From: a virus
Taxonomy: Duplodnaviria > Caudoviricetes
Strand: one strand, 5' to 3'
IMG/VR virus record: IMGVR_UViG_3300022666_000111
Length of the DNA stretch: 64,000 nucleotides
The notes below the pieces were generated by a model. It was not told the DNA's origin and did no database searches. It saw nothing but the letters and a program-made list of their open reading frames with translations. Position numbers and translations under genes: made by a program. This document shows, piece after piece, positions 1,673 to 64,000 of the stretch (its first letter is position 1; every line of letters begins with the position of its first letter).

Positions 1673-2382
1673 TATTGCACCACGTAGGGGTCGCCAAGAA
1701 GCGCCTTGAGCCATTCCAACAGGTCGTCCATGCCTTTGAATTGGGGGTAGAACCTGGCTGCTTGCAGCTTGGCTTGCTTGTCGACCTCGATCGCGGGGCA
1801 TCCGTCCATGCAGACCCAGCTATCCATCTCCTCCCAGCCGTCTTGTCCGTGGTGGACCGTTGACCGCACCGACCAACCTAGTTCATAGGTTTGCTTGTAC
1901 TTGTCCTTAATGTCCACCCCGGCCTTGGGGGGAGCGCTCACCTTGAGCTTCACCTTGCCCTCAAGGAGACACTCGGGACGGTGGATGAGCATGAGGTTCG
2001 TGGGCCAACGCCCGATCGCCAACGTTGGTTGTGGGTCGCTATCCCACCCTCCGCTGTAGGCGTTCTCAGGAGACCCACAGGGCTGGTTGATGCGGATATC
2101 GTCACCGACGTGGCAAGCTGCGAGGTGGATCCCCCCGACGCCGTGCTTGAGAACGTTGGAGGCAACGGTATCTCCGTCGAAGGGGGCGCGGAAGAGGAAG
2201 AGCGTGAGGGTTGAATCCGGCGTCATGACCGTGAGGCCATCACGCATGACGAGGCCCTGTCGGCGGGCCATCATGGAATCGTAGAGTGTTCCAAGAAGGG
2301 CGACGTGCGCCCCTGGGCGGACTTCCTTGATAACGCTCTCCCAGCCGGGTTGGGGGCGAAGGATGATGGCTGATTGATGCAT
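1672..2382 (-). CDS. degenerate DNA methyltransferase-like protein (paralog 3)
   Basis: VRPGAHV, TVASNVLKHGVGGIHLAAC, GRWPTNL, AARFY; start set by GGTGTAG motif 10 nt upstream. Confidence 0.7.
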   Translation of the reverse strand: MHQSAIILRPQPGWESVIKEVRPGAHVALLGTLYDSMMARRQGLVMRDGLTVMTPDSTLTLFLFRAPFDGDTVASNVLKHGVGGIHLAACHVGDDIRINQPCGSPENAYSGGWDSDPQPTLAIGRWPTNLMLIHRPECLLEGKVKLKVSAPPKAGVDIKDKYKQTYELGWSVRSTVHHGQDGWEEMDSWVCMDGCPAIEVDKQAKLQAARFYPQFKGMDDLLEWLKALLGDPYVVQ

Positions 2383-2440
2383 GCTTGGCATTCTACACCG
2401 GAATTCGTTGATGAGGTTCTTCCTTTTGCATACGTAGAGC

Positions 2441-2647
2441 ATGACGATCGAGGGGTACGTTCCGATGTCAACCGAAGAGCGAGACGCGGCAATGGCGCTC
2501 GCACCATCCCGCCCCGCTGCCAAACGGTGGCTTGAAGCCCACAAGGGACACGAGACGCGGATTGCGAGGGTTGAGAACTACCTCAACCGAGGGGTCTACG
2601 TCACGTTTCGGTGCTCTTGCGGATCTACCGAGGACGTCTTGGTTTAG
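2441..2647 (+). CDS. small hypothetical protein
   Basis: Preceded by TTGATG-N13-TGCATA-N8-ATG. Confidence 0.6.
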   Translation: MTIEGYVPMSTEERDAAMALAPSRPAAKRWLEAHKGHETRIARVENYLNRGVYVTFRCSCGSTEDVLV

Positions 2648-3354
2648 AAGAGGTCCTCGTCCAAGAGGCGATCGAAATAATCCGTGAGGGGTTCCGGCGT
2701 CACTTCAAAGAGGACCCATTCCGCGAAGAACCGCTCATGGTTGAGCTGGATCGCGCTGGAATCGGCTGCAAGAGGGTCATCGTAGGTGACCGTGATGAGG
2801 GGATTCGTAGGGCTATGTAGTATGCCTTCGATGACGCCGGTCAAGCCACCGTTGATTTGACGGACGTGAGCGCCCCCTTGAACCCAGGAGGGTAGCTGCA
2901 TGTTTGGAATCGGGGGTCCAAACATGTTCTCCGCGCCGTTGGGCAAGGTGTCAACGAGAAACGTGTGGCGTCCAACCCCACTGTAGTCGATGTTTCGCCG
3001 AAGCGGTTGGATCACACTGCTGGCGAGGCTCCGTTGGATTTGGACGGCGCCTAGCTGTAGGATGGCCTCCATGGCGCTACGGATGGTGGTCCCTGGGTCA
3101 GGGAGAGGCCGTGGCGGCGCGGGCTCACGGTATTGTAGGCGCTCGATGGCGTTGATCACGTCGCTTCCAAGAAGCGTGTCGAGGGGCTCGGTGTTGTAGC
3201 CGATTTGACGTTGAACCTCAACGCGGAGGTTCAAGCCCACGGGGCTAAGCGTGACGCTGGCGATACCTGGGCGGGCGCGGAGCTGGGCTATAAGCTCCCG
3301 CACGGCTATGCGGGAATCCACGTTGTCGTAGACGAAGACCCAGAAGAGCGGCAT
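2644..3354 (-). CDS. chimeric protein: major-capsid-like segment plus acidic C-terminal tail
   Basis: LASSVIQPLRRNIDYSGVGRHTFLVDTLPNGA resembles a recalled capsid N-terminal region; ends DYFDRLLDEDLF. Confidence 0.65.
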   Translation of the reverse strand: MPLFWVFVYDNVDSRIAVRELIAQLRARPGIASVTLSPVGLNLRVEVQRQIGYNTEPLDTLLGSDVINAIERLQYREPAPPRPLPDPGTTIRSAMEAILQLGAVQIQRSLASSVIQPLRRNIDYSGVGRHTFLVDTLPNGAENMFGPPIPNMQLPSWVQGGAHVRQINGGLTGVIEGILHSPTNPLITVTYDDPLAADSSAIQLNHERFFAEWVLFEVTPEPLTDYFDRLLDEDLF

Positions 3355-3653
3355 CAGGCTTGTCCGACGACTTGCTTGTTTCCGAAGATTCGGTCCCAGC
3401 CGTCACGATAGGCGGGGGTTGCTACGCGCACGGGGCCTTGGTGCTCGACCTTCGTGTAGCGGTAGCGATTGCCTTCGATCTGCTCAACCAAGAAGGAGTC
3501 CTCGGGAAGGGATTCCCCATCCGCCACCTTTCGAATGATACCAGCCTCGATCTGGTGATCCTCTGTGTGACGGACGGCGAGGCGTTGGCCCTCCCCGACC
3601 TCCGGACCGATCACGATCTCATTCCCGCAGTCGCATTTCTTCTCGTCGCCCAT
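3354..3653 (-). CDS. hypothetical protein
   Basis: GGTGTAG-N8-ATG; stop overlaps next start. Confidence 0.65.
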   Translation of the reverse strand: MGDEKKCDCGNEIVIGPEVGEGQRLAVRHTEDHQIEAGIIRKVADGESLPEDSFLVEQIEGNRYRYTKVEHQGPVRVATPAYRDGWDRIFGNKQVVGQA

Positions 3654-3661
3654 GTTGACCT

Positions 3662-4012
3662 CTACACCAGCGGATTGTCCTTTGGAGGGGGCATCACTGG
3701 CAGATATACCGCAAGGATACGGGTCTGTCCTGTTCGAAGACATTTGACCACCCGGTGGACCCCATCGGCGATACACCCGTCGGGGGTGAGAATGATGGGG
3801 TAGCTCAGGTCTGCGCGCTCAACGCGATCGGCGTGCTCCATGATCTCGTTGATGGTCATAGGCCCGGCTGACCAGCAATGGCTGTCCAAGAGCTTATCGA
3901 CGTCCGTGATGAGGCAAAGGGCTACCTCCACGGGCTTGAGGAGGGCGGCCATCCGCCAAAGGTCGGCGACGTCCCAGGAGTAGGTCCCGTCCGAATAGGT
4001 CTGGTCAGCCAT
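3662..4012 (-). CDS. ParB/Srx-like N-terminal domain protein
   Basis: YPIILTPDGCIADGVHRV motif. Confidence 0.6.
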   Translation of the reverse strand: MADQTYSDGTYSWDVADLWRMAALLKPVEVALCLITDVDKLLDSHCWSAGPMTINEIMEHADRVERADLSYPIILTPDGCIADGVHRVVKCLRTGQTRILAVYLPVMPPPKDNPLV

Positions 4013-4437
4013 CAGAGCCACCTCAAGGCGGCAGCGTTGCAGATCAGGTGCATCGTGTTGTCCACGATGATCATGAGCCATACGGTGAGCCAGACCGGGC
4101 GTTCCGGGCTGTACCCGGTAGCCTTACAATCCGCCCAGGCATAGTTCCGCCGTGCGGGTTGCCCTTCCGGCTGGATCCACTTGGGCGCCAAGAAGTTATT
4201 GACCCAGGAAACGTACGTCGCGAGCTTGTAGTGATCAATCACGAAATGCGTCACGAAGATGAAGGCCAGAGCGGCTGGGCTCCGTGTGAGCGCAAAGAAG
4301 GGGAGCGTGTAGAAGAAGGCGTGGATGAGCGCCACGCTCTTGCGGTTGTACTTGTTGGCGGCCATCCAATCGGATTGAAGGCAGTAGTCACCGACCAGGT
4401 GACACAGGAGTTGGTCAAAGGTGCCAAATGGGTTCAT
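4012..4437 (-). CDS. DUF3307-like membrane protein
   Basis: HLVGDYCLQSDWMA..H..HFVIDH..DNTMH; GGTGTAG-N8-ATG. Confidence 0.75.
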   Translation of the reverse strand: MNPFGTFDQLLCHLVGDYCLQSDWMAANKYNRKSVALIHAFFYTLPFFALTRSPAALAFIFVTHFVIDHYKLATYVSWVNNFLAPKWIQPEGQPARRNYAWADCKATGYSPERPVWLTVWLMIIVDNTMHLICNAAALRWL

Positions 4438-4453
4438 GCCCCGATCTACACCG

Positions 4454-4789
4454 CTAGTTGCTCTTGTCCCGGAGCGCCTTTGAGAGCATCTGGTGGATCT
4501 CGCGATTGCGCTGGTCGTACTCCGCCTCAATGAGCTTCCCGCGCGTGTACTCATACGCGGCGAGCTTCTTGTAGAAGTTGACCTCGTCGACGTAGGTCTC
4601 CTTGATCTTCTCGTGGTGCTTCTTATGGATCTCGAGGCTAGCTTCGGCGATCCGGCGTTTGGTATCGACGATGATGTACTTGCCCCAGAGGATGCAGCCG
4701 ATGAGGGACCCCCCGCAGAGCATCCCGACGAAGAGGAGAAAGAGCTGCACGACTTGCGGGGTGTTGTGAATCTGCTCGCCGAGGGTCAT
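4454..4789 (-). CDS. hypothetical membrane protein
   Basis: One TM segment; AAGGAG SD. Confidence 0.6.
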   Translation of the reverse strand: MTLGEQIHNTPQVVQLFLLFVGMLCGGSLIGCILWGKYIIVDTKRRIAEASLEIHKKHHEKIKETYVDEVNFYKKLAAYEYTRGKLIEAEYDQRNREIHQMLSKALRDKSN

Positions 4790-4844
4790 AAGGGCTCCTT
4801 GATTTACCTTGGTGGTCCTACACCAGGAGGTGTAGAGGAGACCC

Positions 4845-5189
4845 ATGACAGACAAAGCGATGCTCACGGCTCTTTTGACTTGCGGCAAGCTATCCGAAGA
4901 GGAGGAATCCGCCTTTCGAAGCATGCTGTCACAAATCGACAACGCGAAACAGGTGAAGACGTTATCGTCACGGCAGCGGCAATGGGCAGAATCCGTTTAC
5001 GCCAAGCTCGGCCTCATGGACGAAGAGGGCTCGGCCAATCTCATCTCGAGCGGCAAATACGTGCCGACCGCCGCCGAGATGGTCAAGAGGTATCCATGGG
5101 AGCTGAAGCGCGGCCCACGCAAGCCTCCTGGACGCAAATGCCCGGAGGGGACCGGCGCCTGTAAATGCTGCGAGACTTGTAGGATGTAG
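4845..5189 (+). CDS. hypothetical protein
   Basis: GGTGTAG-N9-ATG. Confidence 0.65.
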   Translation: MTDKAMLTALLTCGKLSEEEESAFRSMLSQIDNAKQVKTLSSRQRQWAESVYAKLGLMDEEGSANLISSGKYVPTAAEMVKRYPWELKRGPRKPPGRKCPEGTGACKCCETCRM

Positions 5190-5447: not shown

Positions 5448-5999
5448 ATGTCATCAAATGAGGATGACATGAAGCAAGAGCCCACCATACACACCTCCAA
5501 TTCAAAGGCTGAAGTCGATACACGCGTCGCGGAGCTTGTCGCACAAGGGTGGACGAGCCTCCCGGCCGATGACCCTGAGCGTGCCCTTCGAGGATTCGTC
5601 GTGTTCCGTTACGTTTCACGACACACGGGGATCCCCGTGACAGAGGAGGCAATGCGGACCGAAGAGGCGATGGCGCAAGACATCGTCGAGGAGACGCAGG
5701 TCTTCCAGTACAACCTCTTTGGAAAGCCCCTCTACCATGACCACGCCGTTGTCACGGCTGAAGAGCTGATCGCCGCCATGAAGGCGGACCCGACCTACTA
5801 CATTGCGGACAACCCCATGGCGAGACTCTTGGGGTTCGTGTGGTACAAGGTGGACGAAGGTGTGTCAAGAGTTCGAAGGACGACGCTCACGGCCTTCAAG
5901 AGTAGTAGTGACGCAGACCGTGCGTTCATTCAGAGCGAGCGGGAGCGCCTGAAGGACGTCGTGCCGCCATATACCGGGCCACAACCCGCCGAGCAATGA
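5448..5999 (+). CDS. hypothetical protein
   Basis: 183-aa ORF with natural composition. Confidence 0.6.
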   Translation: MSSNEDDMKQEPTIHTSNSKAEVDTRVAELVAQGWTSLPADDPERALRGFVVFRYVSRHTGIPVTEEAMRTEEAMAQDIVEETQVFQYNLFGKPLYHDHAVVTAEELIAAMKADPTYYIADNPMARLLGFVWYKVDEGVSRVRRTTLTAFKSSSDADRAFIQSERERLKDVVPPYTGPQPAEQ

Positions 6000-6150
6000 G
6001 GCCCGCGTCCTTGTTCTTGAATTCGTAATCGGGCTTCATCTTCTTGTAGATGCCCATGATGTAGGCATAGTCCTCTGTGTGGCCCTGCTCCTTAGCGAGT
6101 TCCTTGGCCTTTTCCCACTTCTCTTCATCGCGCTTGGTCTTGGTCGGCAT
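5926..6150 (-). CDS. small helical phage protein with RVxxRY motif
   Basis: KWEKAKELAKEQG..YAYIMGIYKKM; IARRVVARYMAA. Confidence 0.6.
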   Translation of the reverse strand: MPTKTKRDEEKWEKAKELAKEQGHTEDYAYIMGIYKKMKPDYEFKNKDAGLIARRVVARYMAARRPSGAPARSE

Positions 6151-6205
6151 GGCGTCACCTTGACTACACATTCAGCATAGGTGAATCCGTGGTGTAGAGG
6201 GGGCT

Positions 6206-6736
6206 ATGGCGAATCACAGCTTCGTTCGATACAACCGGCTGAGCCTCCGCCTCAAGGCCCATGAGGTCGAGACCATGCTCAAGAGCTTCATTGTGGCACG
6301 CTTCGGAGGCCGCGTTGTCATCGAGCGAATCGCTGACAGCCCGATGGAGCGTCAGGGCTACACGGTGTGGCATTGCGTCGCTCCAGGGACGGCCATAGAC
6401 GATCCCAAAGAGGCGATGCGAGCTTGGATGGCCCCAGGGGAGCTGATTGGCTTTCCGGTCTGGTACAAGCCGGGCCTCTTGGAATTCAGGCACGTCCGAA
6501 ACGAATGGGCCAGGTGGGCGCAGAAGTGCGTGGAAGAGGACTTCGCCATGCACCTTGGCGCCACCATGGAGGACGAGGGTGACAACGTCGTCCACAAGGC
6601 CGTCCGGGACGCCAGTAACTTCAACACGGTTCGCGATTACCTCTCTCGGAACTTCACGAAGCCGTTGGAGGGTGATGATCTTGAGTGGGTTGAGCGTTTG
6701 ATGCAAAGCGTCCCGGAGGTCTTCCGGGAGCACTAG
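6206..6736 (+). CDS. hypothetical protein (paralog of 21638..22123)
   Basis: GGTGTAG-N8-ATG; internal similarity. Confidence 0.7.
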   Translation: MANHSFVRYNRLSLRLKAHEVETMLKSFIVARFGGRVVIERIADSPMERQGYTVWHCVAPGTAIDDPKEAMRAWMAPGELIGFPVWYKPGLLEFRHVRNEWARWAQKCVEEDFAMHLGATMEDEGDNVVHKAVRDASNFNTVRDYLSRNFTKPLEGDDLEWVERLMQSVPEVFREH

Positions 6737-7869
6737 AGAAGGAAGCGGAGCGCGACGCGTTGGGCAGCGGTCTTCGTGGGGTAGAAGCCCTTCCCCGGGA
6801 TGAATGCAACCGTCTCGAATGGCTGGTTCTTGAACGTATAGCTCTCCATCGAAACGGTGAGGACCTTGGCGGGGAGGACCTTGGGCACGGCGATGACTTC
6901 GTTCTGGTTGTAGTGGAAGAATCGGCGCCTTAGTCGAAGGGGGAGAAGGGTGAGATCCACCAGGATGTCATCGGCGGAGAGCTTGGTCCCCACGAGAACG
7001 CCCACGTGGGCGGCCTTGGCGAACTCTTGAGCAATCTGCGGTGTCTTGGACCAGGAGGACTCTTGCCCGCGTTGTAGTGTTACGCGGGCGCCCCGTCGGA
7101 GGCTTTCAAGGTCAAGATCCAAGTACTTCTTGACGGCGGCTCGGAGGTCGTGCTCGTCGTTCATAAGGATCCCAATGCCACGGTACGCTGTGAGGCTGCT
7201 ATACGGGAGAGGGATGTTCTCCTTAAGCCAGGATCTGGCTGCCGTCGAGATCCCTTGGCCCTCGTGTGACGTGTAGTTGTCCAGCTCGGTCAGGACGAAG
7301 TCGGGAAGCTCAACGTCTGTGGGGGCCTCCGTCACGAACCGTGGGGCATTGCCGTCGATGAGGTCACAATCCTCTGCCACGCTCTTCCAGACGCCGAACC
7401 GGCCACCCCAACGGGACTTTGGGTCGGCCTCCCAGCCATCGTAGTAGTCCATGAAGGGCTTCATGTGACACGCGGCAAGAAGAGCCGCTTTGGGGCGTTT
7501 GTAGTCCGCCAAAAGCGCCTTGATGATCTCTTCGTGAGACTTCCCCGCGTATTGCTCCGAAAGGGCCGTGGCGTCCAGGATGCCCTTCTGGATACAGAAT
7601 TCGATGTCCTTGACGGTCATCTCGAAGATTCGGGGGACCTTTCGGATGCGGTAGATGTAGTTCGACCCAGGTCCAGCGGCTCCGCTTGCCATATCCCGCC
7701 CGATCCCTTTGCGCCACGTGCGGTAAGCTGCCTCATCGTCCGTGCGCGTTGTCGCGAGGGCGCTCCCGTCAAGGAACTTGACGTTGACGTCCCAAACGTC
7801 AGGGTCGGATTCAATCGGCTTGTGGGTGAAGAGGTAGAGGCGCCCTGCCATGCGCGCGGTGAGGAGCAT
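6733..7869 (-). CDS. putative R-S-E class ADP-ribosyltransferase domain protein
   Basis: AYRG ... ESSWSK..IAQEFA ... QNEVI; C-terminal AAQRVALRFLL. Confidence 0.55.
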   Translation of the reverse strand: MLLTARMAGRLYLFTHKPIESDPDVWDVNVKFLDGSALATTRTDDEAAYRTWRKGIGRDMASGAAGPGSNYIYRIRKVPRIFEMTVKDIEFCIQKGILDATALSEQYAGKSHEEIIKALLADYKRPKAALLAACHMKPFMDYYDGWEADPKSRWGGRFGVWKSVAEDCDLIDGNAPRFVTEAPTDVELPDFVLTELDNYTSHEGQGISTAARSWLKENIPLPYSSLTAYRGIGILMNDEHDLRAAVKKYLDLDLESLRRGARVTLQRGQESSWSKTPQIAQEFAKAAHVGVLVGTKLSADDILVDLTLLPLRLRRRFFHYNQNEVIAVPKVLPAKVLTVSMESYTFKNQPFETVAFIPGKGFYPTKTAAQRVALRFLL

Positions 7870-7890
7870 ATCTGTCGCGTGGCATAGAAG

Positions 7891-8547
7891 CTAACGGGCA
7901 AAGCGAGGCCGGGAGAATCGTGGGCGCATCACGCCGTCCGGCCACATGACGGGCTCAATGAACATCGCCTTGGGGCGCGACCAGATACGCCCATCCTCCC
8001 CCATATAGATGACGACAAGCGCCTGGGTTTCACTATCCGAAGCCTCTCCGAGGACCGTGTAGAAGCCGCCCTTGAAATGCTGGTAGGATCCGGGGGCTAG
8101 CTGTCCAGCCACAGGTGAAGCAGGAGGCAGATCCCCAGCAGGCTTAGGACACTCAGGAGGGCTAGGAAGGTGCTCACGCAGCACCTTAGCAAGATAGCTC
8201 ATGAGAAGCCAATCGTAAGTGTACTTGGTGTCCAGGGGGATGGGGTCGTCCTTGAAATCCGGGAGGCTGTTCAGCCCGGCGATGATCTCGCGCGCTTCCT
8301 CGTCCGTGAGCTTAGCCTCGGTGCGGAGGCGGAAGTCGTTACACCCGTGGTTGGAAAACGATCTGGATGCGATCTCAAGGAGAGCGGCGGCGGTCTTGAG
8401 TTGTGCTGGGGTCATTGTGGGCCTCTTACCTCCGTGAATACGGCAAAGGCCGTTTGCGACGGCCTTGTTGTGACACCCCCCGCGATACCGCTCTACGACC
8501 TCCGTGTAGCGGCATCGCTCTTCGGGGAGGGGTTTCCGGTAGGTCAC
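7891..8547 (-). CDS. DUF1653 domain protein
   Basis: C-terminal YQHFKGGFYTVLG.A.DSET..VVIY..GRIWSRP..MF. Confidence 0.75.
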   Translation of the reverse strand: MTYRKPLPEERCRYTEVVERYRGGCHNKAVANGLCRIHGGKRPTMTPAQLKTAAALLEIASRSFSNHGCNDFRLRTEAKLTDEEAREIIAGLNSLPDFKDDPIPLDTKYTYDWLLMSYLAKVLREHLPSPPECPKPAGDLPPASPVAGQLAPGSYQHFKGGFYTVLGEASDSETQALVVIYMGEDGRIWSRPKAMFIEPVMWPDGVMRPRFSRPRFAR

Positions 8548-11882: not shown

Positions 11883-12161
11883 GCGACGAAGGACATCCAT
11901 GAGAATCCCGTCGCAGAGCCCCATGTTGCCACAATCGTGTTGGACGGAGAATCTGTCACAGGAGAGGTCAACGGAGATGCGTATCTCGTAGACCTCACGC
12001 TCTACGGCGGGGTTCGGGTCCTTGCCCGAGCCGATCTGGGAGTGAAGGAAGTCCGTGATAAGCTCGCCCCGAACCTCGGGCTTCACGTTGGTACGCGCCT
12101 CGTCCCAAGTGAATGACCCGTCCTTCATGTCGTACCGCAGAGTCATTACGAGATCGCTCAT
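11874..12161 (-). CDS. hypothetical protein
   Basis: ATGA coupling. Confidence 0.6.
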   Translation of the reverse strand: MSDLVMTLRYDMKDGSFTWDEARTNVKPEVRGELITDFLHSQIGSGKDPNPAVEREVYEIRISVDLSCDRFSVQHDCGNMGLCDGILMDVLRRLD

Positions 12162-12454
12162 GAGGCACCTACCTTAATGGGGACAGGGGGTGTGACGTCG
12201 AAAGAGGTCGCCTTGCCGCAACACGGGCAGACCCAGGTGTAGATGCCCTCTTCCGGACTATCCGTGGAGGGGCGTATGTTGAGAGGGATGTCAGGCAAGC
12301 CGTAAGGGTTGACACTATCGTGGCGGCACGTGCAATAGACCAGAAACCCCTGCGTTCGGAGTGTCTCCTTGACCCGCCACCGTGCGTAGCGTCTGAGCCG
12401 CCACATCAGGTGCCAAAATTGGACCTTGTACCAAACAGCCTCGAGTATGCTCAT
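12158..12454 (-). CDS. zinc-ribbon-like protein
   Basis: CTC..CPCC; GGTGTAG-N9-ATG. Confidence 0.6.
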   Translation of the reverse strand: MSILEAVWYKVQFWHLMWRLRRYARWRVKETLRTQGFLVYCTCRHDSVNPYGLPDIPLNIRPSTDSPEEGIYTWVCPCCGKATSFDVTPPVPIKVGAS

Positions 12455-12498
12455 GCCGTGTAGCTACACCGAATGGGATGGTGTAGTAGTGGGATCGT

Positions 12499-13581
12499 AT
12501 GCCAGATCCTGCTGATGCCATTGCTGACGCCATCGCCGAGGCTATCTCCGAGCTTGGGGGTGATCCGTCCACAGCTATCGTCACGGACTACCACGTGGAG
12601 TACCCTCCTGGGGGTCCCGTCGTTGTGGAAGCCCCCGTGGAGTACACCGAGACAAGGACTCTCCCAGAGCGGATCTTTTCGATCGGGAGCGAGCTTCCGA
12701 TCGAGCACATCCCGGGGAGGGCCACGGGGACCCTTCAGGTTCAAGGGACGCGGGTTGACTCGCAAGCCTTGGAGCGGCTTCTTGGGGCAGGTGAGCCCGG
12801 CATCCTCCGAGGGATGCCGCAGATCTTCAGCACGATCGATGATGAGGCACACTTCGGGGAGGCCATCCGTGAGGGGCTTGGTGTCAACGAGCCTCCGCCC
12901 AACCGCCCCGGGGAGCCTCCCGAGGGGGCCAACGCCAACGGGGACCTCCTCCCGATCACGTCGTTCACCCGGCAGCCATTGCCGTTGGAAGATCCTACCA
13001 CTGCGCAAATCCGTCGAGAGATCGAGGCGTCTGAGGACGCGGAGATCTTCCGGACCCTTGAAGCCGTGGCTCAAAACGGATTCGACCGTCCAAACTTCGG
13101 CATTGGTGCCAGGGTGCAGCAGATGGTCCGGGATATCGAGGACGCCCGCGTCAACCAGCTCCTGAGCAACATCGATGGGCCTACGCCGAGTTGGGTTGTG
13201 AACCCAGCGGATCCCAACGCCCGAGTGTCGCCGCCAATCCCGCCCCCAATCCGGGCCGAACGCGTCACCATGCCCTTGTTCGAAATAGCCTCCAACCCGT
13301 CGATCCCCCTCACGGCGATCCAGGCGAGGCGTTTCAACTTGATCGACCGTGAGCCTCCGAAGTTCGAGGTAGGTGAGTGGGTCACCTACACACACGGTGA
13401 GGGCTTCATCTACAAGGTCCTCGAGGTTGCTGAGAAGACCGTCACGGTTCAATGCTGGAACGAAGAGGTCTGGGACCTTGTGGGCTTGTTGGTGGTAGTG
13501 CCTCGAGAGGACTGCCACCACTCCCCGGCGCCCGTCAAGAACGTCTGGCAGCGCCTGATGGAAGAAGAGGACCTCTTCTAG
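12499..13581 (+). CDS. mosaic protein: tail-tube-like and capsid-like segments plus acidic tail
   Basis: RVTMPLFEIASNPSIPLTAIQARRFNLIDR; REIEASEDAEIFRTLEAVAQNGFD; ends NVWQRLMEEEDLF. Confidence 0.7.
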   Translation: MPDPADAIADAIAEAISELGGDPSTAIVTDYHVEYPPGGPVVVEAPVEYTETRTLPERIFSIGSELPIEHIPGRATGTLQVQGTRVDSQALERLLGAGEPGILRGMPQIFSTIDDEAHFGEAIREGLGVNEPPPNRPGEPPEGANANGDLLPITSFTRQPLPLEDPTTAQIRREIEASEDAEIFRTLEAVAQNGFDRPNFGIGARVQQMVRDIEDARVNQLLSNIDGPTPSWVVNPADPNARVSPPIPPPIRAERVTMPLFEIASNPSIPLTAIQARRFNLIDREPPKFEVGEWVTYTHGEGFIYKVLEVAEKTVTVQCWNEEVWDLVGLLVVVPREDCHHSPAPVKNVWQRLMEEEDLF

Positions 13582-13913
13582 GTCGGCCACGGTCCTGCGT
13601 CCTCCAATTCCTCGGCGGTTAGCTGCCGCATGTCGGGGCGCATGACCTTGAGCCCACCCTTGGCTTGTATCAGCACACCAACGGCGCAGGGGAGGCCCTT
13701 CTTGGCCAGGAAGTCATAGTCTATGTCGGCGTTGCCGTAGGCGTAGCAAGGGGACTTCTTGAACCACGGCTCGTCATGGACAGCGCATGACGCAACGGAG
13801 CCTTCGAACTTGAGGTGGGGGCAGAGACCTTCACCCTTGAGGAGGGCTCTACCGTTGACGTTGATGACGACCGGCATGGTGCAGCAGCAAAGGCCGCAGC
13901 GTTGACACTTCAT
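13578..13913 (-). CDS. CxxCxxCC (YkgJ-like) cysteine cluster protein
   Basis: CQRCGLCC..CPHL..C.VH..C; TTGATC-N13-GGCATA-N8-ATG. Confidence 0.7.
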   Translation of the reverse strand: MKCQRCGLCCCTMPVVINVNGRALLKGEGLCPHLKFEGSVASCAVHDEPWFKKSPCYAYGNADIDYDFLAKKGLPCAVGVLIQAKGGLKVMRPDMRQLTAEELEDAGPWPT

Positions 13914-14284: not shown

Positions 14285-15697
14285 TCAAGGAAGGCTGACA
14301 GGTTGAGGTGTGACTTTGTCCACGCTTGTAGTATCCCCGAGCTGTCCCTTGTCGTTCAAGCCCCAGCAGTACAAGGTCTCATCCCGTATCCCGCAAGAGT
14401 GTCCACCTCCGGCGAAGACACTATCCCAGAGGTAGCCTCCAGCGACGGCCGTAGGGGTCGATTTGTTGGCGCAGGTATATGGGGGCGGGTCAGGGCAAGA
14501 TGAGCCGTCCCCAAGCTGCCCCCATTGGTTGTGGCCCCAGCAATAGGCTGTGTAGTCTGCCTTCAGACCGCAGGTGAAGACCTTTCCCGCGCTTATGCCC
14601 AACCAAACGTCGCCGACCTGAACGGGGGCTGTCTGTATGTCGAGGGTCCCATTACCAATCTGCCCGGCGCGGTTATCGCCCCAGCAGAAGAGGTGGCTAT
14701 CACTCCTCCGAGCACACGCGTGGATCCAGTACGCCGAAACCTTCTGCCACGTGCTTGTCCCAACCTTGGTGGGCACGAGCTTGGGCGCGGCGTCAGCAAG
14801 ACCAACACCCAGCTCGCCGTAGGTGTTATCGCCCCAACAGTACAGGGAGCCATCGAGCTTGAGGCCACAAGTGAAGTCCTTACCAACAGACACTGAGGCC
14901 CAATCAGATCCTACCAAGCGGGGCACGCTCGTCACGCCCTCGCAGGTATAGGGTGAAGCGGAGCATTGGGTGCCGTCTCCGACTTGGCCGAAGCTATTAG
15001 CTCCCCAGCAGAAGAGCTTCTTGTCGGCCCGGATGGCGCAGGTGTGGCGCCATCCTGCACTTACACTCAGCCAGGTGTCCGAGCCTATCTGCACAGGGGT
15101 CATCGCTGTGTTCGTCGTCCCGTCCCCAAGCTCTCCGTTGACGTTGTAACCCCAACAGAAGAGCTTCCCATTCGTTTTGATTCCGCAGGTATGGTAGCCC
15201 GCTGACACGGTGAGCCATTCCGAATCGTCGACCTTCACGGGGGCGTACTTCGTCTCCGTCGACCCTATCCCGAGCATTCCGTAGACGTTGTAGCCCCAGC
15301 AGGAGAGGGCCTTACCTTTGATGGCGCAATTGTGGTAGAACCCTACTGACAGGGTGATCCCTACGGGGGTGACGACGGCTGCGTCAGCATCGACATCGGC
15401 CGCGTCAGGTGTGTCCGCGTCAACGTCAGCCTCGGCTTCAATGGCGGCATCAGCGTCGGTGAGCGCGTCGGCCTCATAGGTGTCGAGGGTCACGTCAGGG
15501 GGATTTGCGTCCGGGAGCGTGGTGTCCGTCACAACGTCAGGTACTTCAGGCGCCGAAGCGTCCACCTCCTTCGCATCCAAGGCGGCGTCCGTTAGGTCTG
15601 CGGGGGCTCCCCCTGTGTAGCCGTCGAGGGGCTCGAACAAGCGACACGCAGGCAGCGCGAAGCAGAGCAACCCGATGAGAGCTGTGTTGCGCGGCAT
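14285..15697 (-). CDS. RCC1/BLIP-II repeat beta-propeller lipoprotein
   Basis: Lipobox LPAC, Asp/Ala-rich linker, seven repeats of H.C.....L.CWG.N..G.LG.G. Confidence 0.9.
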   Translation of the reverse strand: MPRNTALIGLLCFALPACRLFEPLDGYTGGAPADLTDAALDAKEVDASAPEVPDVVTDTTLPDANPPDVTLDTYEADALTDADAAIEAEADVDADTPDAADVDADAAVVTPVGITLSVGFYHNCAIKGKALSCWGYNVYGMLGIGSTETKYAPVKVDDSEWLTVSAGYHTCGIKTNGKLFCWGYNVNGELGDGTTNTAMTPVQIGSDTWLSVSAGWRHTCAIRADKKLFCWGANSFGQVGDGTQCSASPYTCEGVTSVPRLVGSDWASVSVGKDFTCGLKLDGSLYCWGDNTYGELGVGLADAAPKLVPTKVGTSTWQKVSAYWIHACARRSDSHLFCWGDNRAGQIGNGTLDIQTAPVQVGDVWLGISAGKVFTCGLKADYTAYCWGHNQWGQLGDGSSCPDPPPYTCANKSTPTAVAGGYLWDSVFAGGGHSCGIRDETLYCWGLNDKGQLGDTTSVDKVTPQPVSLP

Positions 15698-15770: not shown

Positions 15771-18098
15771 TCAGATCTTGACCTCGACCTCACGGAGGGT
15801 AGCGGTGCAGGTGAGCTTCTGACCGTCGGCCGTGATGTCCAAGGTGTTCTCGTCAAGCGTCGCGAATTCGGTGAACCAAATCTGACCGACGATGATGGCG
15901 AACTTGATCTTGGCCATCTCCGAGATGAGCTTGCGCACCTCGGTGGTCGCGGCCTTGACCTCACCGTCGATCCAGGCTTCGAAGAGCTTGTCCTGGTTCG
16001 CGGCATTGACGTAGACGTCCGAGGCAAGGAAGCCTTCGACCTTCTCGATGATCGGCTTCATGAGGGCGGCGCCCGCGTTGAGCTTGCCCTTGGCTGCCTG
16101 CTTCTTGAACTCGTTCATGCTCGGGATCGCGGAGAGGCCCTTGATCGCGAGCTTCAGCTCCTTCGCCATGTACACGTCGGTCGCCTCGGCTTGGACCTGC
16201 TTGGGGGAGAAGCCGCTGTAGTCCGTGAAGCCCTGCTCCTTGAGCCATGCGGCGGCGTCGACGCCATAGAGGACCTCGTAGCCTTCGGAGGTGCGGGGGA
16301 ACCGCTCCTTCTTGACGGCGTTGAGGACCTTCTGGGCCGCGCGGGCCTTCGTCAAGGCGTATTCCTTCTCGAAGAGCGCCTTGGCGGAGCAAGCCTTGAC
16401 CATGTTCCGGTTGATGATCGGCATCTCGGTCAAGTCGAACACGAGGTCGACGGGCTTGCTGGGGTCGGTGTACCAGCTCTGGTCGAGCGTTTCGCCTTTG
16501 GGCGTGTGGGCGCAGGTGGGGCTCATACCAGCGTCGCGGAGCTTCTTGATCGTCGCCGGGGTGACGCGGACCGGGAGCGCCTTGACGTTCACGAGCCCAT
16601 CCTTGACGATCGCGTAGTTGCGGAAGATGAAGGTCGGGAAGCTGCGGGGCAGCTTGGGGAATTCACCGTCCTTGACTCGCCCGGAGATATCCACCGTGCC
16701 GGTCTTGCGGACCAACACGCTGATGTTGGGCTTTTCCTCGTTGTAGGTGAGGTTCGAAATGGCGTAGCCGGAACCGTCACCCTTGTCTTCGACGAACTTG
16801 AGTGCGTCTTGCTTGCTCGAGGTGATGGCGGCGATTTCCTGGGCCAGGGAGGCGATCTTCTTGACGTCCTTGGTCTTGCCCATCTCCTCGGTGAGCTTGT
16901 TGACCTTCTCCTGCTCCTCGGCGGAAAGGTTCTCGGAGGCGTCAACCCTCGCCCGGCTGATCCGGTTGTACTTGAACTCAGGGTGGTCCAAGAGCAAGCA
17001 GGCGTCGTCGTCGGCGAGGATCTCCAAGAGCTGGAGGACCGTGAAGGCGTCGTCCGGGGGAACCTGGCTGGGATCGAAGCCCAGGGTCAGGCGCCCTTTG
17101 GGGTCGAACGCGGCGGCCTTAGCGCGCTCCATGAAGGCGCTGTAGCGTTGCTTGCCGAAGCACCCGCCGAATTCCTTGATGAAGCTGACGTCGCCGGTTG
17201 CCTTGAGCAAGGGGAGGACAACCTCGGGCTTCATGCGGACGCTGAAGAGGCTGATCGCGGCGTAGAGGGCCGGGATGGGGTCAGCCATCTTGCCGCTCGT
17301 CTCGGTCGGGGTGAGGTACAGGACCTCCGACACGCTTTCGGGGACCAGGATCTTGCCGTCCTCGACCGTGAAGGTCAGGAGGTCGTCGCCAGCCATAGCG
17401 AAAGCGAACCCGCCGATGACGTCGCCCTTGATGTTGACTTCGACCTTCTTGACGCCAGCGATCTTGCGCTGCATGGCGGCCTCGAAGGCGGGCTGGTAGG
17501 TGTCGAAGTGCTCGGCGAAGATGTGGGCGCCACCGGCCTTCTCTGCCATCGCGGCCAAAAGGGGGCGGTCGGCGTAGTAGCCGTACTCAACGATCGTCGT
17601 TGCGGCAAGCCCACCGGCTGCCTTCTCGATCGCCTTGAGGATCTCGGCGCGGCTCCATTGGTTGTCACATCCATCGCTCATGAAGAAGAGGCTGAAGGCC
17701 GTTCCGGGGCGCTTCTTGCCAATGCGGTCGACCAGCTTGGCGGCCTCCTCGAGGGGCTCCTTGAATCCGGTCAAGCACACCGGCTTGAGCCAGCGATCGA
17801 TCGCCTGGTTGACGGCGGAAAGGTCCGCGAGGGTCGCCACCGGCTCGGCCTCAAGCAGGGTCCCGAATTGCCCGCGCCCGGAGAACCACACGATGCTGAT
17901 CGTGTCCTGGTCGCCGAGGAGCTTGGGGAGCTTCTTCTTGAGCTGTTCGCGAATCTTTGGCAACTCACCGTACATCGAGCCCGAGCAGTCAATCACGACG
18001 ATGTGGTTGGTCGGGGGCGGCTTGACGGTGGTAGCGGGCTTGGTGGAAAGCAGAACCGAGGCAAGAAACAGAGAGGCGGTGATGGGGTAGCTTGACAT
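15771..18098 (-). CDS. large vWA (MIDAS) domain protein
   Basis: VVIDCSGSM, T, FMSDG; CAGGAG SD before ATG 18098; strong GC3 bias. Confidence 0.85.
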   Translation of the reverse strand: MSSYPITASLFLASVLLSTKPATTVKPPPTNHIVVIDCSGSMYGELPKIREQLKKKLPKLLGDQDTISIVWFSGRGQFGTLLEAEPVATLADLSAVNQAIDRWLKPVCLTGFKEPLEEAAKLVDRIGKKRPGTAFSLFFMSDGCDNQWSRAEILKAIEKAAGGLAATTIVEYGYYADRPLLAAMAEKAGGAHIFAEHFDTYQPAFEAAMQRKIAGVKKVEVNIKGDVIGGFAFAMAGDDLLTFTVEDGKILVPESVSEVLYLTPTETSGKMADPIPALYAAISLFSVRMKPEVVLPLLKATGDVSFIKEFGGCFGKQRYSAFMERAKAAAFDPKGRLTLGFDPSQVPPDDAFTVLQLLEILADDDACLLLDHPEFKYNRISRARVDASENLSAEEQEKVNKLTEEMGKTKDVKKIASLAQEIAAITSSKQDALKFVEDKGDGSGYAISNLTYNEEKPNISVLVRKTGTVDISGRVKDGEFPKLPRSFPTFIFRNYAIVKDGLVNVKALPVRVTPATIKKLRDAGMSPTCAHTPKGETLDQSWYTDPSKPVDLVFDLTEMPIINRNMVKACSAKALFEKEYALTKARAAQKVLNAVKKERFPRTSEGYEVLYGVDAAAWLKEQGFTDYSGFSPKQVQAEATDVYMAKELKLAIKGLSAIPSMNEFKKQAAKGKLNAGAALMKPIIEKVEGFLASDVYVNAANQDKLFEAWIDGEVKAATTEVRKLISEMAKIKFAIIVGQIWFTEFATLDENTLDITADGQKLTCTATLREVEVKI

Positions 18099-18204
18099 GG
18101 TGTTCTCCTGACGGCAAAGGCGCAACAAGGTTGGTTTTGGGTGGTGGGATGCGCCACACGCCGTTCCCTCCTACTACACCGGACGGTGGCGCCGATCAAT
18201 GAAA

Positions 18205-19809: not shown

Positions 19810-20071
19810 GATCGTCCACGACGGTCACACGGTAATCCATGACGGACGTCCCGCAGAGGATGTAGCACAAGAAGTACGCGGCTGTATGCCCATGTAGGAC
19901 ACTCACAAAGCCTTGTGGGTACTTCTGCGGCTCAAGGACGACACGGAGAGGTCCTCCTGCTCCGACGATGGCTGGGATCTTTCCTCGGAGGACCTTGAGG
20001 ACGGTGTCTGCAACGTCCGTGTACGACGTGACCTCGGTGACCTTCTCGTCACAATGGTAGATGTGGATCAT
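19775..20071 (-). CDS. hypothetical protein
   Basis: ATGA coupling. Confidence 0.45.
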   Translation of the reverse strand: MIHIYHCDEKVTEVTSYTDVADTVLKVLRGKIPAIVGAGGPLRVVLEPQKYPQGFVSVLHGHTAAYFLCYILCGTSVMDYRVTVVDDLTGAPSPSPSP

Positions 20072-20439
20072 GGATGCGCCTTAAGGGGCTTGAGGTCAAG
20101 GGCGACGGTTCGAGCGACCTTTTCGGGGACCTCATCGGTGTCGTTGCTGATTCGAAGCTCGGGGGTGTGGCTTGGGTAGTAATAGCCCGGGGGGATAGCG
20201 CGGGAGACGTAGACGTGCGGTCCGAGGCGATCCATGAAGCGGATTGTGCCCATGAAACCCGCTTGGAGGAAGTCCACGAGGGTATTGGGCTCGTAGTCGT
20301 CCTTCGTCGCGTTCTTGATGAAGAGCTGGTAGTCCTTGGGGGAGATCGTGACGGGGAGCGCCTCGAGGTAGAAGAGAGTGTCAACGATCTCCTTCCAAGT
20401 GGCGGGCATGGTCCCCGTCTCCGGAGTGTCGTGCTGCAT
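20068..20439 (-). CDS. major-capsid C-terminal-half-like small protein
   Basis: ISPKDYQLFIK...FLQAGFMGTI....HVYVSRAIPPGYYY; similar to 42227..42445. Confidence 0.55.
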   Translation of the reverse strand: MQHDTPETGTMPATWKEIVDTLFYLEALPVTISPKDYQLFIKNATKDDYEPNTLVDFLQAGFMGTIRFMDRLGPHVYVSRAIPPGYYYPSHTPELRISNDTDEVPEKVARTVALDLKPLKAHP

Positions 20440-42140: not shown

Positions 42141-42230
42141 CCAGCCCATCTTGGAGTGCTGGTCCTTAGTGCAGCCACTTTTGGAGTGTTGAGCCTGTCG
42201 CCAGCCACTTTTGGAGTGTTGGCCCTTACT
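42141..42230. repeat. three 30-bp-period repeats with CAGCCACTTTTGGAGTGTT core
   Basis: Read directly. Confidence 0.85.
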
Positions 42231-42445
42231 TCGCTTGCGTTCGAAAGTTCTGCCGCGATATCGTGGACTTCGTGACCGACCGGGAGACCCTCAAGAAGGG
42301 GATCTACGCGCACCTCTGGAACGCCGAGATCCGTTGCCGCAAGGACATCCCCGCAGGTTACCTTGTGCGCATCGGTGAGGATGAGGGCAATCGGGATCTC
42401 CGCGCGGCTTGGAAGCCCTCGCGAAAGAAGCTCTACCGCTACTAA
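42227..42445 (+). pseudogene. major-capsid-like fragment (possible GTG start at 42263)
   Basis: VRKFCRDIVDFVTDRETLKKGIYAHLWNAEIRCRKDIPAGY; similarity extends upstream of the only start codon. Confidence 0.6.
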
Positions 42446-45714: not shown

Positions 45715-46086
45715 ATGCGACGTCTCATCCCCATTCTCATCGCCCTTTGCTCCTGCGGAAACTACGCCAAGATCGATGGAGGCCGTGTAGGTGAGGGTAA
45801 GCTGGGCGGCATTCGTCCGGGGCCGTATGACCCTGATGTTGTCGTTGTTGGCGCGCACGTATCCCTTGCGGCGGGGGACGTGCCTTGTGACGACGCGGAT
45901 CCGAACTACGTCACAACGGACGTCAAAGGGGAGTACGAGTACCTCCACGTAGATTCAGGGTGCAGCGAGGACCCGGATCGCTACACGTTCTGCGTGATTC
46001 ACCCTGACTACGAGACGTTCCGAGAGGTCTTGATGCACCGCCCGGTAGGGCCGAACATCAACGTGGAGCTGGTCAGGAAGCCTTGA
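45715..46086 (+). CDS. putative lipoprotein
   Basis: MRRLIPILIALCSC; TTDVKGEY..HPDY. Confidence 0.6.
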   Translation: MRRLIPILIALCSCGNYAKIDGGRVGEGKLGGIRPGPYDPDVVVVGAHVSLAAGDVPCDDADPNYVTTDVKGEYEYLHVDSGCSEDPDRYTFCVIHPDYETFREVLMHRPVGPNINVELVRKP

Positions 46087-46288
46087 AACCGCAGATCGGG
46101 CAAGTGTCTTTGAACCCGCTGCGGCCAAGGAAGGGATGGCAGACCCGGTGACATAGGGGCTCAGAGGCTCGGCGATGCTGCTCCTTTCGGATGACATCGT
46201 GCAAGGACGCCGCTAGGCGCGTCCTCCCCTCGGCTGAGCTGAGCGCGTCTTTGACAAGCTCGTCGGGACTTGGGGGTTTATCGGTCAT
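46073..46288 (-). CDS. capsid N-terminal-helix-like peptide plus zinc ribbon
   Basis: LVKDALSSAEGRTRLAASL; CHRVC..CPICG. Confidence 0.55.
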   Translation of the reverse strand: MTDKPPSPDELVKDALSSAEGRTRLAASLHDVIRKEQHRRASEPLCHRVCHPFLGRSGFKDTCPICGFKAS

Positions 46289-63615: not shown

Positions 63616-64000
63616 CTAGAAAAGGTCTTCGTCCATGAGCTTGTCGTAAGCGGTGTGGACGGGGTCGGCGGTCATCCGCGTTGGGGCGACGATCGCGTAG
63701 TTCCAATCGTTGTACAATTCGGGGAGGGCGACCTGGATGAATTCGGGCTCGTTATGAGGGTACGGGCTTCGGGGGAGCCCGAGCGTAACCACGGGGATAC
63801 GGGCCATCCTTCCGGGGGCTTCTTCGATGGTGCTTAGGGATGCCACAATCCTGTAAGACTTGCGCATATCCGGGGGCGCCCAGATTTGACCCTCTTCGAC
63901 GGTGTGGCAGAGCACGCATTCGTAGTAGAGGTGCTGCTCCTGCGGATCGTCGTAGGACGACGCGAGGTTGCGTCGTTGGAGGTTGTAGCCCTCCCCGTAA
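63616..64000 (-). CDS. hypothetical protein with acidic tail (5' end outside window)
   Basis: Frame open to window end; ends HTAYDKLMDEDLF. Confidence 0.65.
   Translation of the reverse strand, partial: YGEGYNLQRRNLASSYDDPQEQHLYYECVLCHTVEEGQIWAPPDMRKSYRIVASLSTIEEAPGRMARIPVVTLGLPRSPYPHNEPEFIQVALPELYNDWNYAIVAPTRMTADPVHTAYDKLMDEDLF

Follow-up and report, generated by a model that had tools for sequence, protein, structure and literature searches.

The Family 4 'A-domain' encapsulins, which are cellular and encoded beside enzyme genes, provide an example of a truncated HK97-fold derivative kept as a free-standing protein (PMC8346489), and fragments engineered from proteins can inhibit the interactions of their parents (PMC9245647). 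These are the published ideas nearest to the gene described here, which lies in a 64,000-nucleotide stretch of DNA (the window) from a huge uncultured phage of the Caudoviricetes (IMG/VR record IMGVR_UViG_3300022666_000111) and encodes a 360-residue protein, P0001. In P0001, pieces of structural proteins are strung together on a common handle: as a preliminary description of the sequence had proposed, a single open reading frame (ORF) joins pieces of virion proteins in a non-native order, and every element listed there is present (Table 1). What distinguishes it is its large size, the several pieces carried at once, their shuffled order, the tail-tube-like piece among them, and the SH3-like block with a ...DLF handle that follows. 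Literature searches on decoys and fragments of capsid proteins and on capsid paralogues of huge phages turned up no account of proteins of this kind.

The capsid-derived pieces were identified with a hidden Markov model (HMM) built from a capsid protein, P0056, and 20 relatives, all collinear members of PHROG 2522; this profile matches the phage G capsid protein gp27 (PDB 6wkk) with an E-value of 2e-113. The strongest piece in P0001 is the strand block PLFEIASNP...RRFNLIDR, already taken for capsid-like in the preliminary description, which corresponds to the post-E-loop block of the phage-G-type major capsid protein and matches phrog_2522 positions 118-152. Translated searches (tblastx) started from dozens of true capsid genes land at 13252-13350, within the same block. 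With the capsid gene of LR745208, a phage of 485 kb, it shares 73% identity, and of the positions that hardly vary among true capsid proteins it keeps R, P, F, E, N-P, R-R-F and D-R.

Two helix copies had also been claimed, and the first of these is a copy of the capsid spine helix: the match spans residues 165-199, a profile of 16 relatives aligns in register with the capsid profile (hhalign E 7.5e-5), and a helix is predicted by AlphaFold2 (AF2) at residues 166-192. The second is related to the first, as the profile comparison in Table 1 indicates: its motif family, 'DATILRDLE', is conserved and has the spine-helix motif as a relative (family profile against the capsid profile, hhalign E 0.21), but the P0001 copy is degenerate and lacks five core residues. 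In the family alignment, relatives have their match to capsid HMM 263-305 in the columns taken up by the stretch IDGPTPSWVVNPADPNA. True capsid members match HMM positions ~20-307 in one stretch, the block being followed directly by the spine helix, whereas in P0001 the segments equivalent to HMM 106-140 and 138-168 are inverted and the helix lies ~75 residues upstream of the block, in agreement with the permuted order reported earlier. A Foldseek search with the P0001 model gave no capsid match.

Residues 56-94 of P0001 probably derive from a tail tube protein, to judge from sequence comparisons that agree in pointing to the same region of the tube. The phrog_985 profile matches the segment with E-values of 0.003-0.023, and the corresponding segments of six of seven relatives match the same phrog_985 region. 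When 50,697 phage records were searched with the piece by tblastn, the top matches were SPO1-like tail tube genes located just after the sheath gene, at an E-value of 5; pairwise, the alignment to the SPO1-like tube is ungapped over 39 residues (33% identity, 59% similarity; tube residues 38-76), and the two have in common the motifs 'IGS..P.EH' and 'TG(T/S)'. Smith-Waterman z-scores against the SPO1-like tube were 7.2 for P0001 and 2.9-7.2 for five relatives, always over tube residues ~39-76. The top PDB match of a profile of the motif was the phi812 tail tube (8q01, E 0.09), and in a language-model feature search, whose score is a lead only, the nearest named clusters were all tail tube families. 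The resemblance noted in the preliminary description thus recurs among orthologous segments, but it is weak in database-wide searches. No match for phrog_985 or for the tail-tube-piece profile was found in LR745208. A capsid origin of this piece was considered and rejected, as was that of the 'PPG' motif preceding it, since hhalign against the capsid profile found no match for either; the 'T..(Y/M).VEYPPG.PVVVE' motif aligns with P0003, P0004, P0008 and P0038, in which it stands elsewhere along the chain. The extreme N-terminus is acidic, as had been observed.

The C-terminal part of P0001 is of a different kind. A small SH3/KOW-like block had been recognised there in the preliminary description, and AF2 models it as a five-stranded small-barrel fold with strands at residues 294-341, for which Foldseek returned KapB, HspQ, Spt5 KOW and Tudor structures with E-values of 7e-3 to 5e-2. 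The handle that follows is conserved in P0003, P0004, P0006, P0011 and P0051, the last of which consists only of a tail-tube piece, the SH3-like block and the tail. Within the window the ...DEDLF ending is common to P0001 and to the ORFs 2644-3354(-) and 63616-63999(-), two paralogues that bear other pieces; the shared tail of the preliminary description is therefore a real feature of several genes.

For structure prediction, P0001 was modelled with AF2 on a 9-row alignment and its relative P0021 on 17 rows. The mean predicted local distance difference test (pLDDT) score of P0001 was 51.6, with values below 50 for 210 of the 360 residues, including the capsid block, which was modelled as coil (pLDDT 31-44). 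The barrel is the only confident part, while the helices at residues 4-18, 166-192 and 202-223 have moderate confidence. An HK97 fold was not predicted, a result of moderate weight given the shallow alignment; together with the shuffled motifs and the lack of a collinear family match, it agrees with the earlier expectation that the ORF would not fold as a capsid. For P0021 only helices were predicted, with no beta-sheet for the capsid-derived strands. Judging from the low model confidence and the composition, P0001 is probably mostly disordered.

Conservation between P0001 and its orthologues is confined to islands that coincide with the motifs, and the intervening linkers contain 13-35% proline. 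In P0001 the linker at residues 97-157 is composed of 16% Pro and 13% Gly, has pLDDT values of 31-46 and shows near-zero identity to the orthologues. The N-terminal halves of the relatives (P0003, P0004, P0005, P0009, P0010 and P0038) contain the same motifs in varied order and number, while the order of remnant, block and handle at the C-terminal end is constant. The islands of conservation, the shuffled motif order, the low AF2 confidence and the missing sheet in P0021 all point to a function that resides in short linear pieces and not in a capsid-like fold.

Searches with the whole protein indicate that P0001 is no capsid protein and belongs to no named family. Pfam gave no match for P0001 when both strands of the locus were scanned, nor, with E-values up to 1 admitted, for its full length or residues 280-360 alone, and blastp within the window found no paralogue of the whole protein. 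An exhaustive phmmer search of 1.8 billion representatives returned 58 matches in three groups: a few collinear relatives (P0002, P0003, P0004, P0006 and P0011), many true major capsid proteins or capsid fragments, and proteins of 250-500 residues that share just short motifs with P0001. No relatives were found in IMG/VR and the metagenome contig collection, and a profile search with the family alignment added no members. The pieces do match structural proteins and no known family is collinear with P0001, the two points on which the preliminary description could have failed. We also observed a metagenomic protein of 810 residues (P0007) with nine tandem repeats of ~90 residues resembling P0001 residues 83-138; it may be a genuine repeat protein or an artefact of assembly.

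The gene itself is under selection. Its frame has a GC content at third codon positions (GC3) of 0.748, and the ratio of nonsynonymous to synonymous substitutions (dN/dS) relative to a 95%-identical copy in contig L005 is 0.30, against 1.17 in the overlapping antisense frame, where GC3 is also lower. The antisense ORF of 379 residues was therefore taken as a shadow frame. All 50 nucleotide differences between P0001 and the L005 copy (2001-3083) fall in codons 35-199 and the two are identical from codon 200 on, a pattern that looks like a within-gene recombination patchwork. A syntenic orthologue, P0003 (406 residues, contig L002), is 32-36% identical to P0001 overall, with 20 of 30 residues identical in the capsid block, and genes for DUF1653, DUF4419 and DUF6166 proteins surround both. 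P0001 lies outside any head or tail module, its neighbours being these three genes, an RCC1-repeat gene and small genes of no assigned function.

Capsid pieces recur in other ORFs. Those of the window are included in Table 1; elsewhere, an ORF of L029 consists of the block and a '...DDDLL' tail, and a pattern scan of the metagenome contigs for the block gave mostly true capsid genes, plus other cases such as L020. In this contig (44% GC) seven tandem small ORFs share an unrelated 'PLVEIEDF..E.FWPEW' module, and four of the seven carry the N-helix, the N-helix and strand, the block, or the C-terminal strands of L020's own capsid protein, to which the pieces are 47-65% identical. Synonymous sites are saturated for three of the four pieces and the fourth has a synonymous divergence (dS) of 1.2, the proportion of synonymous differences (pS) reaching 0.97; recent gene conversion from the capsid gene is thus ruled out for the L020 lineage, and the likeness must be old and maintained at the protein level. 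These features of L020 lie at 2033-5003 (minus strand) and 7281-8138(-), with neighbouring ORFs that give partial PHROG matches to DNA methyltransferase and a polymerase exonuclease subunit, and a LAGLIDADG gene (5947-7200(+)) stands beside the capsid gene. In P0080 (474 residues) the capsid match ends at HMM ~190 and is followed by a LAGLIDADG-containing part; as this junction does not fall at the block, homing-endonuclease drag was rejected as the source of the block. The complete genome of LR745208, which has the same capsid type, contains none of the P0001-family genes, so the family is accessory. A faint P0010 match in the LR745208 portal gene was dismissed as noise, and P0001 does not match there.

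With regard to function, the explanation that we rank first is that P0001 works by molecular mimicry in a conflict; we assign it a probability of roughly one in three. The beads of the string would be short pieces copied from the most abundant late proteins of the phage: two to three derive from the major capsid protein of phage-G type, where they belong to the P-domain, and one is probably a tail-tube hairpin. A piece would be bound by whichever factor ordinarily reads the corresponding segment of a freshly synthesised subunit before assembly, and through the handle that the paralogues share, this factor would be linked to a third component common to them. The setting would most probably be a conflict in which capsid and tail-tube subunits are sensed by the host or by rival phages; routine assembly is less likely. 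We favour this reading because the genes are accessory, fast-shuffling and outside the structural modules, because the copied segments are those that capsid proteins cannot easily change, and because P0001 combines two proteins that have separate assembly and are both abortive-infection triggers. The sensors of abortive infection classically respond to capsid and tail tube proteins, which are also the main building blocks of the virion, and since heads and tails assemble separately, a sensor-directed role fits a protein with pieces of both better than an assembly role does. The low dN/dS and the island conservation in orthologues show the selection acting on the gene.

Several points weigh against conflict mimicry. 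The tail-tube similarity is marginal, with database-wide E-values from 0.003 to 5, and the low AF2 confidence may reflect the shallow alignments of 9 and 17 rows instead of true disorder. Free capsid peptides, as in the Gol and Lit systems of T4, activate rather than block at least one defence, and therefore a plain decoy could be harmful, which counts in part against the multi-target decoy suggested in the preliminary description. In addition, the phage's own capsid and tail tube genes lie outside the window, so that descent of the pieces from its own proteins is presumptive. A broader form of the idea, in which giant phages would encode 'bait-and-handle' proteins, disordered strings of the best-conserved segments of their own capsid and tail tube subunits, that capture host immune sensors or rival-phage factors recognising these subunits and, by means of a shared handle of SH3-like barrel and acidic tail, deliver them to a common neutralising component, P0001 being a multi-bait member covering two virion proteins, we regard as a long shot.

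Alternatively, P0001 could be an assembly modulator: by imitating interface or core segments, its pieces would attach to capsid and tail tube subunits of the same phage that are still unassembled, preventing premature or aberrant polymerisation or timing the assembly of a very large phage-G-type head. The origin of the pieces in the best-conserved parts of the capsid P-domain, with near-invariant residues kept, would suit such a factor, as would the location of the L020 fragment genes ~3 kb from the capsid gene and a faint head-scaffold match in P0010. We consider it nevertheless rather doubtful, since P0001 and its paralogues are scattered outside the structural modules, LR745208 manages the same capsid type without the family, a core assembly factor would not usually change so quickly in motif order and copy number, and the independence of head and tail assembly, mentioned above, speaks against a shared modulator. 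It is also unlikely that the fragments were duplicated and shuffled into an unrelated job, for example in an adaptor or regulator recruited via its acidic ...DLF tail, with the pieces surviving only as local structural or oligomerisation elements. The tail does resemble those acidic docking tails whose last residue, at the C-terminus, is aromatic, the degenerate second helix and the strand remnant of P0001 show that not every piece is maintained, and the confinement of differences from the 95% relative to codons 35-199 is a sign of a recombinational patchwork; however, the block retains the conservation pattern of the capsid family over large distances, and the design of capsid piece plus common handle arose with an unrelated handle in the L020 lineage, which is hard to explain if the capsid likeness is irrelevant.

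Two further explanations appear improbable. If P0001 were head cargo or a minor virion protein, the capsid-like pieces, the tail or both would be a signal for incorporation into the procapsid, and capsid-like strands might indeed add onto the inner surface of the shell; but P0001 has no enzyme or effector domain to deliver, is not near portal or head genes, and would carry a tail-tube piece without a role, and no protease-site pattern came to light in it, although no search was aimed at one. Residues ~150-290 might instead fold as a circularly permuted mini capsid domain, that is, an HK97 P-domain with changed connectivity, given that capsid-type conservation is retained and that in a relative, P0081, the C-terminal strands (HMM 263-305) lead directly into the block and spine helix (HMM 107-167), so that all P-domain elements are present. 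Against this, in the AF2 models of both P0001 and P0021 these segments form no beta-sheet and have low confidence, the helices-only model of P0021 being the ground on which a stand-alone permuted P-domain was rejected; the C-terminal strands of P0001 are reduced to a remnant, and the motif order among relatives varies beyond a single permutation.

As to the surroundings of the gene, a GGTGTAG box precedes P0001, and its mirror copy serves the divergent gene. The window contains 43 copies of this heptamer against 4.6 expected, a number reached in none of 100 shuffles, and its distance upstream of the gene starts inspected is 10-20 nt, which makes a phage promoter or an element of the start region probable. 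Just downstream of P0001 there is a gene (14285-15697(-)) for a 470-residue RCC1/WD40-like repeat protein with a hydrophobic N-terminal stretch, followed by one (15771-18128(-)) for a 785-residue protein of unassigned family, and both also adjoin the P0001-type gene in L001 and L005. The small flanking genes 13578-13913(-) and 12158-12454(-) encode Cys-rich proteins (CxxCxxCC-type and CxxC...CxxC), the former overlapping the P0001 stop codon by 4 nt on the opposite strand.

Table 1. Features of P0001, its start region and other capsid-piece ORFs of the window (HMM, capsid profile positions)
Feature	Position	Strand	Evidence or remark
P0001 coding sequence	12499..13581	+	360 residues
Acidic N-terminal helix (residues 1-19)	12499..12555	+	AF2 helix 4-18, pLDDT 60-74
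'T..(Y/M).VEYPPG.PVVVE' motif (residues 24-53)	12568..12657	+	conserved in relatives
Tail-tube-like piece (residues 56-94)	12664..12780	+	phrog_985 profile positions 39-76
Pro/Gly/Glu-rich linker with short 'NGDL' motif (residues 97-157)	12787..12969	+	unconserved
'RQPLPL' motif and capsid spine-helix copy (residues 158-192)	12970..13074	+	HMM 138-168, domain E 0.1
Second helix, degenerate copy (residues 202-223)	13102..13167	+	hhalign against first-helix profile, E 2.3e-5
'IDGPTPSWVVNPADPNA', remnant of capsid C-terminal strands (residues 225-242)	13171..13224	+	alignment columns
Capsid strand block 'RVTMPLFEIASNP...RRFNLIDR' (residues 251-285)	13249..13353	+	HMM 106-140, domain E 9.5e-13
SH3/KOW-like beta-barrel (residues 288-342)	13360..13524	+	AF2 pLDDT 83-88
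C-terminal handle 'PVKNVWQRLMEEEDLF' (residues 345-360)	13531..13578	+	short helix and acidic run ending Leu-Phe
GGTGTAG promoter-like box	12480..12486	+	13 nt 5' of ATG
GGTGTAG mirror copy	12464-12470	-	serves divergent gene
Capsid-piece ORF	2644-3354	-	HMM 46-84; ...DEDLF tail
Capsid-piece ORF	20068-20439	-	HMM 198-256
Capsid-piece ORF	42227-42445	+	HMM 206-257
Capsid-piece ORF	46073-46288	-	HMM 32-60
'EPEF' piece ORF	63616-63999	-	piece seen by eye; ...DEDLF tail

A selected gene family that copies, shuffles and mounts conserved segments implies a use of structural-protein sequence that we did not find in the literature searched. Such a use might amount to a novel way of countering host defences or of interfering with other phages, or, where very large heads are built, to an additional level of control over assembly; the pieces would mark those capsid and tube segments that are functionally 'read' by something else.

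Compared with its parent proteins, P0001 is much reduced. It copies the strand block and the spine helix of the phage G capsid protein gp27 (residues 251-285 and 165-199), yet just ~65-70 of ~300 capsid positions are represented, in inverted order and with ~50 unrelated residues between them; the N-arm, E-loop and A-domain are absent, and the gene is not in a head module. Similarly, the matched segment covers 39 of the ~140 residues of the Herelleviridae-type tail tube (SPO1 and phi812), the rest of the tube fold being absent. The Family 4 encapsulins retain a folded A-domain, whereas P0001 has no match to capsid HMM 168-245 and carries instead P-domain pieces that are mostly unfolded in prediction and phage-encoded. 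With respect to the handle, acidic C-terminal docking tails that recruit partners are found in the E. coli SSB protein (...DDDIPF) and in T7 gp2.5 and gp4, which end in Phe; P0001 has a similar acidic run with L-F at the C-terminus, common to several proteins of the genome, a likeness of sequence pattern only, and the bearers here are capsid-piece proteins and not DNA-handling proteins. Finally, the Gol peptide of T4 gp23 and the engineered dominant-negative fragments resemble the proposed action of P0001 in that a short piece acts in trans on the partners of its parent; Gol, however, has no gene of its own and switches a defence on.

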